A DNA stretch of 64,000 nt from Escherichia coli (GCF_003334255.1 NZ_QOWU01000018.1), one strand, 5' to 3'; counted from the first letter of the stretch, positions 22,976 through 64,000 are shown. Numbers and translations are program-made. Notes: generated by a model not told the origin, from the sequence alone.

Positions 22976-23336
22976 CGTAACTTACTCATTATTCTTACAT
23001 TGACGACTAAGCTGCGGGCAAAGTAACGCCTTTCCGGGTGTGAACCGATGGCCTCGTGTCTAGTCGCGTCGCCAACCTCACGGTTATCGTCAGCTCAAAG
23101 AGGCGCAGAGTGTCGGTTGCCCGTTTTTCATGCGGAAAAACAGCGCAATTATCAAAGAAACAGACTGGGTATTACTCTCCAGAAATATTTCCATCTACCG
23201 GTAAGGACTGCAACCCGCAGCCCGCTAACTGCCTGAAAGATCAATACGTCTTACGCCATTGCTGCGTGGATGATCGGTCGGGCAAAATGGGTTATTCCGT
23301 AAAATTTCTTGTTTTAACAAGGATGGACACGGAAAC
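22976..23336 (-). promoter_or_regulatory. rne long 5' UTR (autoregulatory leader)
   Basis: The 572-bp rne-rluC intergenic region matches the known long rne leader; extent taken from established knowledge, not resolved from sequence. Confidence 0.55.
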
Positions 23337-24618: not shown

Positions 24619-25203
24619 CTATCCCATCAGCGGGTTTTTCCCTTCCCGACGTAACATCTGACACAGCGCGATTAGCGGTAAACCAACCAGCGTGTTAGGA
24701 TCACGCCCCTCTAAACGCTCAAACAGCGTAATGCCAAATCCTTCACTCTTAAAGCTACCCGCGCAGTGCAGGGGATGCTCTTTACGCACGTAATTATCAA
24801 TCTCCGCCTCGCTCAGGTGACGGAAATGGACGTCAAAAGGCTCCACTTCTGTTTGCAGATGCCCATTCGCCGAATTAAACAACGCCAGTCCAGTATAGAA
24901 GGTGACGATATTGCCGCTGGCTTTGCGTAATTGCAGACGGGCATTTTCTTCCGTTAACGGTTTACCGGTGATTTCGCCATCAAGAACACATACCTGGTCT
25001 GAACCAATAATTAAATGATCCGGATAACGTGACGCCAGAGATTGCGCTTTTTCTTGTGCCAGTCGAAGCACCAACTGTCGCGGTGATTCGTCGCTGCGTG
25101 GGGTTTCGTCGACCTCTGGTGCTGCACATTCAAAAGAGATTTGCAGTTTTTCCAGAAGAGCGCGACGCCATGGCGAGGTGGAGGCTAAAATAAGTTTAGG
25201 CAT
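24619..25203 (-). CDS. yceF: Maf-like nucleotide pyrophosphatase YceF
   Basis: ORF-track frame trimmed to [20 protein letters not shown]; 194 aa. Confidence 0.92.
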
Positions 25204-25389
25204 ATTTTTTTCCATCAGATATAGCGTATTGATGATAGCCATTTTAAACTATGCGCTTCGTTTTGCAGGTTGATGTTTGTTATCAGCACTGAACGAAAAT
25301 AAAGCAGTAACCCGCAATGTGTGCGAATTATTGGCAAAAGGCAACCACAGGCTGCCTTTTTCTTTGACTCTATGACGTTACAAAGTTAA

Positions 25390-60389: not shown

Positions 60390-61436
60390 TTAACGTCCTG
60401 CTTTCAGCTTCTGATAATACTCTTCATAAATGCTGCTGGCTGCGCCAACGTCATTCTGCCATTCGCCATTTTTAATGGTTTCAGCATCCGGGTAGAGCGT
60501 TTTATCGTTCGCCACTTCCGGGCTTAACAGCTTACGCGCCGCAAGGTTTGGCGTTGGATAACCGATAGTTTCGGCAACCTGTTTTGCCACATCCGGGCGC
60601 AGCAGGAAGTTGATCAATTTCAGCGCGCCTTCTTTGTTTTTGGCATTTGCCGGGATCGCCAGGCTGTCCATCCAGAAAATGCCGCCTTCTTTCGGCCATA
60701 CCACGTCAATTGGCGTACCCGCCTGGCGTGCAACGAAAGCAGAACCGTTCCAGATCATGCCGAGGTTAACTTCGCCTTCCATGTACGGGTTAGCCGGGTT
60801 ATCGGAGTTAAAGGCTGCCACGTTTGGCATCAGTTTTTTCAGCTCGTTATATGCAGCTTCAATCTCTTTCGGATCGGTGGTGTTACCGGAGTAGCCCAGC
60901 TTACGCAGCGCCATCTGGAACACTTCACGGGCATCGTCGGTCAACAGCAGGCTGCCTTTGTACTCAGGCTTCCACAGATCGGCCCAGCTGGTGACAGATT
61001 TCGGATCCACCGCATCACCGTTAACACCAATCGCCGTCGCACCCCAGATATACGGAATGGAGTAATCGTTATTCGGGTCAAACGGCTTATTGAGCATGTC
61101 TGGATCGAGATTGCTGAAGTTCGTTAACTTCGACTTGTCGATCTTCTGGATCATCCCTTCTTTACGCATTTTATCGACGTAATAGGTTGAAGGAACCACC
61201 AGGTCATAGGCACCGTCTTTGTACGTTTTCAGCTTGGCGTACATGGTTTCGTTCGACTCGTAAGTCGAATAGATAACCTTAATACCGGTTTCTTTGGTGA
61301 ATTGTTCAAGCAGTCCTGGCGGCACGTACTCGGTCCAGTTGTAGAAATACAGCGTGTTGTTGTCATCGGCGTGAGCGGCGCTCATGCCCAGTGCCAGAGC
61401 ACCCGCCGCGAGCAGGTGGCGTGACCATTTTTTCAT
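60390..61436 (-). CDS. potD: spermidine/putrescine ABC transporter periplasmic binding protein
   Basis: 348-aa ORF with signal peptide matching PotD. Confidence 0.97.
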   Translation of the reverse strand: MKKWSRHLLAAGALALGMSAAHADDNNTLYFYNWTEYVPPGLLEQFTKETGIKVIYSTYESNETMYAKLKTYKDGAYDLVVPSTYYVDKMRKEGMIQKIDKSKLTNFSNLDPDMLNKPFDPNNDYSIPYIWGATAIGVNGDAVDPKSVTSWADLWKPEYKGSLLLTDDAREVFQMALRKLGYSGNTTDPKEIEAAYNELKKLMPNVAAFNSDNPANPYMEGEVNLGMIWNGSAFVARQAGTPIDVVWPKEGGIFWMDSLAIPANAKNKEGALKLINFLLRPDVAKQVAETIGYPTPNLAARKLLSPEVANDKTLYPDAETIKNGEWQNDVGAASSIYEEYYQKLKAGR

Positions 61437-62227
61437 TTAACGTCCCCTGTGTTACCTTTCGTTTTATCACGAGCAATAAGCTGGCTGGCAATAACCATCA
61501 CCAGCGACAGCACCAGTAATATGGTTGCCAGCGCGTTAACTTCCGGCGATACGCCGACTTTGACCATCGAATAAATTTTTAACGGCAGAATTTCATAGCT
61601 TGGTCCGGTGACGAACGAAGAAACTACTACATCGTCCATCGACAGGGTAAAGCTTAACACCCAGCCCGCCGCCACCGCTGGCATTGCCAGTGGCAGAATG
61701 ATTTTTCGCAGAATGGTAAATTCGCTGGCACCGAGATCTTTCGCCGCTTCCAGCATTCGCACGTCAAAACCTTTCAGGCGCGAATACACTGTCACCACCA
61801 CAAATGGCAGGCAGAAGGTGATATGCGAGAACAGCAGCGACCAGAAGCCAAGCTGAATACCCAGCAGCATAAACAGCACCAGCAGCGAAATCGCCATCAC
61901 GATATCTGGTGACATCATCACCACAAACAGCATTCCACTAACGAACGGCTTACCACGAAAGCGATAACGGTACAGCGCAACTGCCGTCAGTGAACCGATA
62001 AGCGTAGCAAATGTCGCCGAAAACACCGCCATTGTTAGTGAATGCTGCGCTGCCTGTAACAGGCTGTCGTTGTTCATCAGCAGGCTATACCATTTGGTGG
62101 TAAAACCCTGCCAGTTGATGCCAAAGCGCGAGCTGTTAAAGGAGTTCACAATCAAAATAATGATTGGGATATACAGGTACGCGTAGATAGCGGTCATAAA
62201 ACCGCCGCGAAGCAGTCGACCGATCAT
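61433..62227 (-). CDS. potC: spermidine/putrescine ABC transporter permease
   Basis: 264-aa ORF matching PotC. Confidence 0.96.
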   Translation of the reverse strand: MIGRLLRGGFMTAIYAYLYIPIIILIVNSFNSSRFGINWQGFTTKWYSLLMNNDSLLQAAQHSLTMAVFSATFATLIGSLTAVALYRYRFRGKPFVSGMLFVVMMSPDIVMAISLLVLFMLLGIQLGFWSLLFSHITFCLPFVVVTVYSRLKGFDVRMLEAAKDLGASEFTILRKIILPLAMPAVAAGWVLSFTLSMDDVVVSSFVTGPSYEILPLKIYSMVKVGVSPEVNALATILLVLSLVMVIASQLIARDKTKGNTGDVK

Positions 62228-62250
62228 TCGAGTTCCACCTTTTTATTCAT
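62224..62250 (-). other. putative prophage attachment-site core retaining the last codons of potB
   Basis: Minus-strand frame ends …SRLMNKKVELE-TGA with the stop overlapping the potC ATG; this resembles the PotB C-terminus as I recall it, while the sequence upstream is not PotB-like. Core boundaries are estimated. Confidence 0.4.
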
Positions 62251-62393
62251 AAGGCGGGACACTTTCAGGATTTTGAATTTATTCAATTTTTCCCTTTCTC
62301 CAAAATCTCTCCAAAACGTTTCCCCAAAACTAGGCCACGCATTTTACAACACTTTTTTCCTGAGATGGTGACGGATATTCCATATGGTGTTTG

Positions 62394-63512
62394 TCAAATA
62401 ACCAACTTAACCCATTCCTGACCTCGAGTATCGTTATAGCGATCGGTGGTTGCCTGGACTTTATGTCCTAGTAATGTTTTTGTATCGATACCCTGTGCAC
62501 GGTACAGCCGTTCTGATAGAGAGCGTTGTTCATGAAATGTTGGCGGAGTTTTTCCTGCTGGTGGAATTATCCCAGCCAGATCCCGTGCTTTGGCAAAGTA
62601 GTCGCTCAGGTTGTCTTTACTCATCGGCTTCGGTTGTTTCTGGTGCCGACTATGGATTAGATATGGACTTAATATTCTGTCTCGGCACCCATCAATAACT
62701 TCTTTTAACGTTATCCCAATGGCATCACAGCGTAGTGTAAGCGGTAACGCCAGACGCATTCCGGTTTTTCCCTGGGTGATATGCAAGTGTTCGTTCCACA
62801 CATCTGAAAAACGCATGTGGCAAATGTCATCACGGCGCTGACCAGTAACAATCGCAAGAAGCATTGCGTTACGGATAAAGTGTTTTTCAGGCGTTGCATT
62901 GTAAATTTTTTGCCAGTCTTCCATGGTGAGCCTGGCTCTGGTTACTTTAGGGATCGGTTTACGGGTAGCCTCCGGAGGATTCCATCCAGGAGGAACTTCC
63001 CCTGCATGCTGTGCTTCTTTATAAATATCAACCCATAATCCACGATTTACTCTCGCTGTGCTGACCATGTCTTTATCCAGCCACTCATCCAGTATTAATG
63101 CAAAGTCTCTTACTTCCAGTTCTTTCAATGGGTGGTTTCCCAGACGGGAAACCAGGTATGCAGCCATTCGAGTTTTTTCTTTGTGAGTTGTAGCTGCAAT
63201 ATCTCCATTTTTCAGTCGCGTGTCCTGTATTTTCAGATATCGATCAACCCATGCCTTTAATCTGATACCCCGACGTTTTGTTGCTGACGGACTTTCATCA
63301 ATTTTGCGCATGAAATATTCAGCTTCTGCTGCAGCTATTCGCTGATTGGCTGTGGAAGCGATTTTTTCTGCCTTACCTTTGTCTGTTCCGAGTCCGTGAA
63401 ATTTTCCAGTCACAGGATTTTTATACTGGTAGTAAACTCTGCCAGTTCTGCGATCAAACTTTTCGTAAAGACCGGCTACGTCAGTGCTGTTTTTTCGTGG
63501 CCTCGGTGACAT
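62394..63512 (-). CDS. int: phage integrase, tyrosine recombinase (lambda Int family)
   Basis: 372-aa ORF; C-terminus TFHEQRSLSERLYRAQ…LLGHK…TDRYNDTRGQEWVKLVI parallels lambda Int (HxxR, H, Y catalytic residues); N-terminal arm-binding-like domain. Confidence 0.9.
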   Translation of the reverse strand: MSPRPRKNSTDVAGLYEKFDRRTGRVYYQYKNPVTGKFHGLGTDKGKAEKIASTANQRIAAAEAEYFMRKIDESPSATKRRGIRLKAWVDRYLKIQDTRLKNGDIAATTHKEKTRMAAYLVSRLGNHPLKELEVRDFALILDEWLDKDMVSTARVNRGLWVDIYKEAQHAGEVPPGWNPPEATRKPIPKVTRARLTMEDWQKIYNATPEKHFIRNAMLLAIVTGQRRDDICHMRFSDVWNEHLHITQGKTGMRLALPLTLRCDAIGITLKEVIDGCRDRILSPYLIHSRHQKQPKPMSKDNLSDYFAKARDLAGIIPPAGKTPPTFHEQRSLSERLYRAQGIDTKTLLGHKVQATTDRYNDTRGQEWVKLVI

Positions 63513-63750
63513 GAGTTAAAATCTCCTTCAGTGCATCATCATCGCCAGTATGAATTTCCGGCGCAATTCCCGTTTCACCAGGCCCAACAAATACTGCTCG
63601 GCGATCTATCAGCCAACGCCCACGAATTTTTTGTGGCCTTGGAACGATGTATCCTAGTTTTCCGTATTTCACCAGGGTAGTGTTTGTTATTGGGAGACTG
63701 AACCGTTTTGGTTTCCACTCGTCGAGCGTTATCAGGTACTGTTCGCTCAT
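63481..63750 (-). CDS. xis: excisionase (Xis-like)
   Basis: MSEQYLITLDEWKPKRF… resembles the lambda Xis N-terminus (MYLTLQEWNARQRRPR); overlaps the int start by 32 bp as in lambda. Start may instead be 63759 (MIAMSEQ…). Confidence 0.75.
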   Translation of the reverse strand: MSEQYLITLDEWKPKRFSLPITNTTLVKYGKLGYIVPRPQKIRGRWLIDRRAVFVGPGETGIAPEIHTGDDDALKEILTHVTEATKKQH

Positions 63751-63811: not shown

Positions 63812-64000
63812 TTAAAAATCAGCCTGACTCGGGATCAGTTTTTGCCAGATAACTGAAACGTATTTTGCCTGGTAACGGGCGTCATCAAGTGCATTATGGC
63901 GCTCACCTTCGAATGGAATAGCCGTTCTGGCATCGAAGTCTATGGCTTTCCCCAGCTCAACGATTGTGCGTACATCGCGATCGTTGTAGTAACGCCACGG
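63812..64000 (-). CDS. phage DnaQ-like (DEDDh) 3'-5' exonuclease, C-terminal 62 codons only
   Basis: Minus-strand frame ends …AIPFEGERHNALDDARYQAKYVSVIWQKLIPSQADF-stop; H-x-A-L-x-D-A motif matches exonuclease motif III of the DnaQ superfamily. Confidence 0.6.
   Translation of the reverse strand, partial: PWRYYNDRDVRTIVELGKAIDFDARTAIPFEGERHNALDDARYQAKYVSVIWQKLIPSQADF

Follow-up and report, generated by a model that had tools for sequence, protein, structure and literature searches.

Phage 21 and e14 insert in the 3' end of the icd gene and supply a substitute end for it. The Rac prophage likewise lies in a coding sequence, namely that of ttcA (PMC4632033). The system closest to the one considered here is the 44-kb prophage of Escherichia coli CFT073, which two publications name PhiPotB (PMC3573123, PMC4632033). 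Studies on O157:H7 list PP_potB and 'prophage 5 (potC)' (PMC9997748, PMC10925052), and potC is cited in a further source as an insertion site of Stx phages (PMC8065619). In the passages of these sources in which the PhiPotB, PP_potB or potC locus is named, the core, the arm repeats and the altered PotB end are not described (PMC4632033, PMC3573123, PMC9997748, PMC8065619, PMC10925052).

The feature analyzed here lies near the end of a 64,000-nt stretch of E. coli DNA (GCF_003334255.1 NZ_QOWU01000018.1), referred to below as the window, and is the att junction of this known and very common lambda-like prophage, i.e., a feature of an already known kind. Compared with PhiPotB of CFT073, the locus and the integrase family are the same and no difference is essential; position 8 of the core is A in the window and G in CFT073. 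As in the icd- and ttcA-type prophages, the phage arm completes the frame of the target gene, so that a slightly altered protein results, and the gene's own end comes to lie at the other junction; unlike in those systems, the substitute consists of only five codons for three, and the operon is interrupted between two genes that are translationally coupled, the potB stop lying over the potC start. The resemblance to phage lambda extends to full-length Int homology, an adjoining xis, a short core and a putative 7-bp overlap with inverted half-sites. The system differs from lambda in its core (TGAATAARAAGGTG versus GCTTTTTTATACTAA), in its arm repeat TTTTGGRGA and in its target, which is a coding sequence and not an intergenic region. 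The one modest addition made here is to show that the sifA islet of Salmonella shares this attachment site. In the segment 62224-62354, a lambdoid prophage of the PhiPotB type, ~45 kb long, very probably has its att junction on the integrase side, in a model that includes strand exchange at TGAATAA and a chimeric PotB.

The att core and the probable site of strand exchange

Only 1.8 kb of the prophage falls within the window, the remainder of which is ordinary E. coli core chromosome (PyrC leader, rne 5' UTR, SraB, lolCDE, nagK, and cobB). Rfam matches at gathering score to the PyrC leader, the rne 5' UTR element and SraB (window positions 1216-1265, 23000-23336 and 25197-25365) are expected E. 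coli core features. The spacer between potC and the integrase gene measures 166 nt, and the potC side of the locus is organized as follows.

60390-61436, minus strand: potD
61433-62227, minus strand: potC, intact; the prophage separates it from potA-potB
62224-62249, minus strand: displaced authentic potB 3' end (L278 positions 2-3 to E285 plus stop), 25 of 26 nt identical to K-12
62249-62236, minus strand: att core of 14 bp, TGAATAA[A/G]AAGGTG; position 8 (62242) is polymorphic A/G and is A in the window
62243-62249, minus strand: probable overlap (strand-exchange) region, TGAATAA, 7 bp, deduced from natural markers
62343-62224, minus strand: stop-free frame of 39 codons, translating to NAWPSFGETFWRDFGEREKLNKFKILKVSRLMNKKVELE*, with a TAA just before it
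62250-62343 and 62224-62249, minus strand: composite of attP arm (phage) and displaced potB 3' end, respectively

Genomes with an uninterrupted potB-potC pair matched the window only from 62249 downward; many non-lysogenic E. coli strains were 100% identical to the window from this position on, and their alignment began exactly there. Upstream of 62249, the arm matched potB at 9/30 nt, which is chance level. The earlier view that the DNA ahead of the PotB-like tail is a phage arm is borne out. Homology between arm and potB beyond the core ('VSRLM' versus 'ASRLL') was considered and rejected on the same count. Three synonymous-looking codons 5' of the core are inseparable from the half-site similarity at that place.

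The core was defined by alignment of the K-12 attB with the potB-side junction of strain G1/2 and the int-side junction, together with five attP sequences. G1/2 is a 100%-identical lysogen, and its int-side junction is identical to that of the window. A preliminary description, made from the window alone, had proposed a prophage att junction with integration into the last codons of potB, and the three-way alignment of K-12 and the junctions supports this proposal: an identical segment does exist at the other prophage end, K-12 PotB does end in NKKVELE, and the segment common to all the aligned sequences is 14 bp long. This 14-bp core (TGAATAARAAGGTG) is present in the K-12 attB, in both junctions of G1/2 and of CFT073, and in the five attP sequences. 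It spans potB codons L278-V282 and ends 9 nt short of the potB stop; the att core, which had been thought to cover the potB 3' end, thus does not cover it and does not reach the stop codon.

The attP sequence was predicted by joining the int-side arm to the distal arm, and the exact join was found in five contigs. One of them, the IMG/VR contig UViG_2534681703_000014 (45,442 bp), has ends that overlap by exactly 123 nt and is therefore a circular assembly of ~45.3 kb; the others are three further IMG/VR contigs and one contig from a human-gut metagenome. The majority of the integrase loci in IMG/VR had been cut off at the stop codon of int and were uninformative on the junction. Two 'phage' records covering int and the arm, ON470612 and ON470619, were rejected as a source of attP, as both are predicted prophages to which host flanks with potC and potD are still attached.

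Position 8 of the core served as a natural marker for the point of exchange. In uninterrupted potB this position is G in K-12 and A in many strains, and in attP it is G in all five copies (5/5). With 87-nt allele-specific queries, the distal junction was matched exactly with G in 182 genomes and with A in 0, and the int-side junction with G in 110 genomes and with A in 10, where the counts are of exact matches and most genomes lie in the 95-99% identity band, in which position 8 was not read singly. In the lysogens of which both ends were checked (G1/2, 90-3040, and 2013C-3492), A was found at the proximal and G at the distal junction, and three more potC junctions from IMG/VR have A at position 8. 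Position 8 thus follows the phage allele at the distal junction and the host allele on the int side, which would put the exchange to its left. Phage and host have different bases immediately ahead of TGAATAA (A and C, respectively), and the exchange region would therefore be confined to the 7 bp TGAATAA. The crossover most likely lies within this heptamer, and 7 bp is the canonical overlap length for enzymes of the lambda-Int type. Exchange to the right of position 8, within AAGGTG, is unlikely. Although AAGGTG is likewise identical in attP and attB, and single genomes are ambiguous because position 8 is polymorphic among hosts, such an exchange predicts the phage G always at the int-proximal junction and the host allele at the distal one, whereas the opposite was seen, with A common proximally and no exact match with A distally. 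The segment is also only 6 bp long, with a mismatch at its border.

The displaced potB end and the distal junction

Translation of 62343-62224 confirmed the 39-codon minus-strand frame that had been noticed earlier, with its TGA (62226-62224) overlapping the potC ATG (62227-62225). Its last residues had been called PotB-like, and K-12 PotB indeed ends ...WRASRLLNKKVELE*; true homology between the frame and potB is limited to 62249-62224, the final 26 nt. In the peptide, FGE/FWR/FGE is the arm repeats in translation. At least 39 open codons ahead of the fixed stop were obtained in 4.2% of composition-matched shuffles, and the length of the frame is unremarkable. No credible start codon with a ribosome-binding site was found in the frame, and a 1-nt deletion inside it breaks it in one near-identical attP copy (the UViG contig). 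Given these three observations, the 39-codon frame is not a gene and should not be called one in annotation.

Translation of this frame, or of an 8-codon MNKKVELE* (62250-62224) at its end, could in principle keep potC translationally coupled. The phage-specific A that precedes TGAATAA creates an in-frame ATG and is present in all E. coli-type attP copies, and the stop overlaps the potC ATG as in the wild type. However, no Shine-Dalgarno sequence stands at a suitable distance from this ATG, the remnants in Salmonella and Citrobacter described below have C at this base and thus CTG in place of ATG, and the conservation of the base is otherwise explained since it belongs to the putative core-type half-site; the long frame, for its part, does not stay open in a close relative, in which an indel interrupts it. 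Such translation is therefore considered quite unlikely; the frame is a composite of phage arm and displaced host sequence.

In both CFT073 and G1/2, a complete lambdoid prophage (~45.3 kb in G1/2) is present between potB and potC, with the same gene order and with int next to potC; CFT073 has an identical 87-nt arm-core-potC junction. Among 5,426 complete E. coli genomes, the arm-core-potC junction was found in ~1,630 (30%) and the common distal arm in ~970. A few matches to the junction queries (2-6 places) were on records classed as plasmids, not chromosomes.

The distal potB of G1/2 ends ...NKKVSELDD* and encodes 287 amino acids as compared with 285 in K-12, and the tail in CFT073 is also SELDD. 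A variant distal arm, ~65% identical to the common one (L011 3340-3720, L012 3317-3700), is found in 90-3040 and 2013C-3492, where PotB ends ...NKKATEIDN* with V282 changed to A and is again 287 aa long. The variant arm keeps TGAATAAGAAGG, the stop position, the CTTTATATTCAA block and the TTTTGGAGA repeat. PotB is hence a 287-aa protein with a phage-encoded tail in all four lysogens (G1/2, CFT073, 90-3040, and 2013C-3492). Another attP encodes the tail VNELDD, and both tail length and stop position are conserved in all five tail variants seen (VSELDD, VNELDD, ATEIDN, VSDISD, and VSDIDS). In 90-3040 and 2013C-3492, the variant distal arm is followed by a frameshifted IS3 transposase.

The preliminary description had envisaged a core spanning the whole potB 3' end including its stop, with potB intact at the distal junction and a phage-borne tail next to potC. 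It is true that the tail next to potC reads NKKVELE* and that a segment is shared by both ends, but that arrangement is refuted by three observations: the two junctions cease to be identical after ...AAGGTG, with 9 nt still to go to the stop; the distal PotB ends VSELDD or ATEIDN at 287 aa; and GAACTCGAATGA follows the core in no attP copy. The NKKVELE* beside potC is displaced host sequence, and it is the other junction that has the phage-derived tail; potB at the distal junction is complete but chimeric, its ELE being replaced by the phage-encoded residues. Next to no weight can be given to the idea that transposition or illegitimate insertion produced the 14-bp repeat as a target-site duplication. 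Transposons too make short direct repeats around their inserts, but the 14-bp segment is already found, in one copy each, in the free circular phage (attP) and in the empty potB, an Int/Xis pair adjoins the repeat, and ~1,600 genomes share an identical junction.

Integrase and arm anatomy

The repeat being taken as a recombination core, the elements that surround it on the prophage side are listed here.

62394-63512, minus strand: integrase, 372 aa, lambda-Int type, phrog_7244
63481-63750, minus strand: excisionase, phrog_629 (E=5e-26), so annotated by RefSeq in G1/2 and CFT073
63812-64000, minus strand: 3' end of the gene for a prophage exonuclease (exoVIII/RecE-like); the prophage runs past the window end
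62250-62256, minus strand: CGCCTTA, putative half-site of the core type with predicted Int binding; it forms an inverted repeat with AAAGGTG (62236-62242)
62273-62286, minus strand: perfect palindrome TTGAATAAATTCAA, located on the core side of the arm repeats and containing a second copy of the overlap heptamer TGAATAA
62321-62329, 62308-62316 and 62297-62305, minus strand: three arm-type repeats TTTTGGRGA in tandem, putative sites of the Int N-terminal domain
62335-62348, minus strand: outer conserved block TGTAAAATGCGTGG, at the outer edge of the conserved int-proximal arm

The integrase belongs to the family of lambda Int. Its residues 1-64 correspond to the arm-binding domain PF09003 (Arm-DNA-bind_1, E=7e-21), and the protein also matches PF00589 (Phage_integrase, E=4e-18). 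Comparison with the lambda Int structure 1z1b gave E=4e-54 over residues 26-371, and the catalytic motifs TGQR, KTG, FHExRS and LLGHK...Y were aligned and conserved with respect to 1z1b (R, K, H, R, H, and Y).

The three repeats on the int side are clustered within 33 nt (62297-62329), at 48-80 nt from the core, and are invariant across all attP and junction copies, while the distal arm holds two more (TTTTGGAGA and TTTTCGAGA) at 130-152 nt past the core. At the sequence level, repeats of the form TTTTSGRGA are thus present in both attP arms, away from the core, in 3 + 2 copies that are conserved across diverged arms. The count of the motif in the whole window is by itself not significant (4 observed versus 2.2 expected); the signal of the arm repeats is their clustering and their conservation across copies. 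Int would bind these repeats through its N-terminal domain. The layout resembles that of lambda P'1-3 and P1/P2, and the junction in the window is the equivalent of attL in lambda terms, since int of lambda adjoins the three-site P' arm.

The core is flanked by inverted half-sites, in the order CGCCTTA / TGAATAA / RAAGGTG. In one attP variant (L009) the left half-site is CACCTTA, and the inverted repeat comes nearer to a perfect one. The int-side arm is nearly invariant for ~105 nt ahead of the core in every copy. An element similar to the palindrome occurs in the Salmonella and Citrobacter remnants (TTGATCATTTTCAA / TTGATTATTTTCAA). No exact IHF consensus (WATCAANNNNTTR) was found in the reconstructed attP, and the conserved palindrome at 62273-62286 presumably occupies the position where lambda H' would be. 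The TGTAAAATGCGTGG block has been retained in all three of E. coli, Salmonella and Citrobacter, also at places from which int has disappeared. It probably marks the functional edge of the arm.

A different spacing of int and att arm was observed in 7_12_15B (L014 1673-2321) and in one IMG/VR locus (L090), where ~900 bp of extra DNA separate the int stop from the att arm; for the latter this was judged only from the core being ~890 nt farther from int. The extra DNA of 7_12_15B contains two small opposite-strand genes, one for a DUF2335 protein and one for a hypothetical protein, and past this unrelated cargo the homology to the window restarts exactly at the TGTAAAATGCGTGG block.

According to the mechanism proposed here, the tyrosine integrase of the lambda family, with its N-terminal arm-binding domain, would recombine attP with the site in potB codons 278-282, and the adjacent excisionase would assist the reverse reaction. 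Strand exchange would most likely take place across the 7-bp TGAATAA, between the inverted CRCCTT half-sites. Integration leaves the last 26 nt of potB (..NKKVELE*) on potC, behind the arm with its three TTTTGGRGA repeats, while ~45 kb away potB reads via the core into the other arm and gains a 5-codon tail and a stop, to give a PotB of 287 aa.

Islets at the same site and the split pot operon

In a protein search, PotB of most Salmonella enterica was found to end ...NKKVSDISD (287 aa), and one Citrobacter PotB, also of 287 aa, ends ...NKKVSDIDS. The 285-aa form with ...NKKVELE is retained in some E. albertii and in diarizonae-type Salmonella, and the 285-aa Salmonella potB directly overlaps potC with no insert. 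In S. enterica GCA_031641955 (L016 6864-8518), the sifA islet of 1,654 bp and 41.5% GC is located between potB and potC and has the 14-bp core repeat TGAATAAGAAGGTG on both sides. Its potC-side end is 80.3% identical to window positions 62322-62186 over 137 nt (E=1e-30), and its arm remnant contains two TTTTGGAGA repeats with the same spacing as in the window; no int, xis or phage genes are left in the islet, which contains sifA only. A 2.8-kb islet bounded by TGAACAAGAAGGT occupies the same site in Citrobacter GCA_014103655 (L017 6864-9703) and contains YCII, DUF1440 and an 85-aa ORF. It matches window positions 62532-62181 at 72.8% over 382 nt (E=5e-63), a stretch reaching ~140 nt into the 3' end of the integrase gene, and its arm remnant also retains two arm repeats. 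The potB-side arm of this islet resembles the variant-2 distal arm of E. coli.

The sifA and Citrobacter islets are best read as decayed prophages of the PhiPotB family, because both have the same core and have kept arm remnants, with a piece of the integrase gene in addition in Citrobacter. Like the E. coli prophage, the sifA islet goes together with a 287-aa PotB carrying a foreign 5-residue tail; it differs from the prophage in being fixed in most S. enterica instead of variable. Direct repeats of 14 bp around sifA were reportedly described by Stein et al. (1996). The interruption of potABCD by sifA is already known (PMC3340349, PMC11299824), and no published link of the sifA repeats to the att site of the E. 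coli potB phage was found in the literature searched.

As the potC Shine-Dalgarno sequence (AAGGTGG, 62235-62241) coincides with the right half of the core, potC keeps its ribosome-binding site and start codon after integration. In a lysogen, potC is cut off from the potA promoter and no longer coupled to the translation of potB, and the prophage puts ~45 kb of largely repressed DNA between potAB' and potCD. No consensus sigma-70 promoter or intrinsic terminator was found between int and potC in E. coli, and the arm remnants of Salmonella and Citrobacter likewise gave neither. One may speculate, though it is rather doubtful, that integration is not neutral for the host, that the expression of potCD, and hence spermidine uptake, depends on read-through from the int region in ~30% of E. 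coli and that excision restores the operon, so that lysogeny would act as a reversible switch of polyamine transport. If this were true, the conserved 5-codon acidic tail and the arm kept upstream of potC in the fossils would reflect selection for a working transporter.

A hairpin was observed soon after the substitute potB stop in each distal-arm variant (L016 ~6895-6935, L017 ~6905-6945, L011 ~3420-3460, and L004 ~3640-3660), the stem being GCCGTT...AACGGC in the common variant and GGCATG...CATGCC in the three others. Such hairpins could terminate transcription of potAB'; none of them scored as a consensus terminator.

The potABCD transporter of Salmonella, with its split operon, still gives genetic phenotypes (PMC3340349, PMC11299824). 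This implies that a PotB with a foreign 5-residue tail, expressed from a split operon, can function in Salmonella. PotB of Salmonella has the analogous VSDISD tail, and these genetic data lend indirect support to the view that E. coli lysogens tolerate the insertion; the chimeric PotB and potCD may still function in them.

For annotation, prophage integration should be regarded as the source of the 287-aa PotB variants and of the 26-nt potB remnant, which are not natural potB alleles. The core, the probable overlap region and the arm repeats provide a usable definition of attB, attP, attL and attR for the calling of prophage boundaries, and this definition would also be of use in the design of PCR assays for curing and excision and in the typing of Stx-phage insertion sites. 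The origin suggested here for the sifA islet would account for the different C-terminus of most S. enterica PotB proteins. The shared core and arm would also identify the vehicle that brought sifA, a major SPI-2 effector gene, which may matter more than the junction itself.
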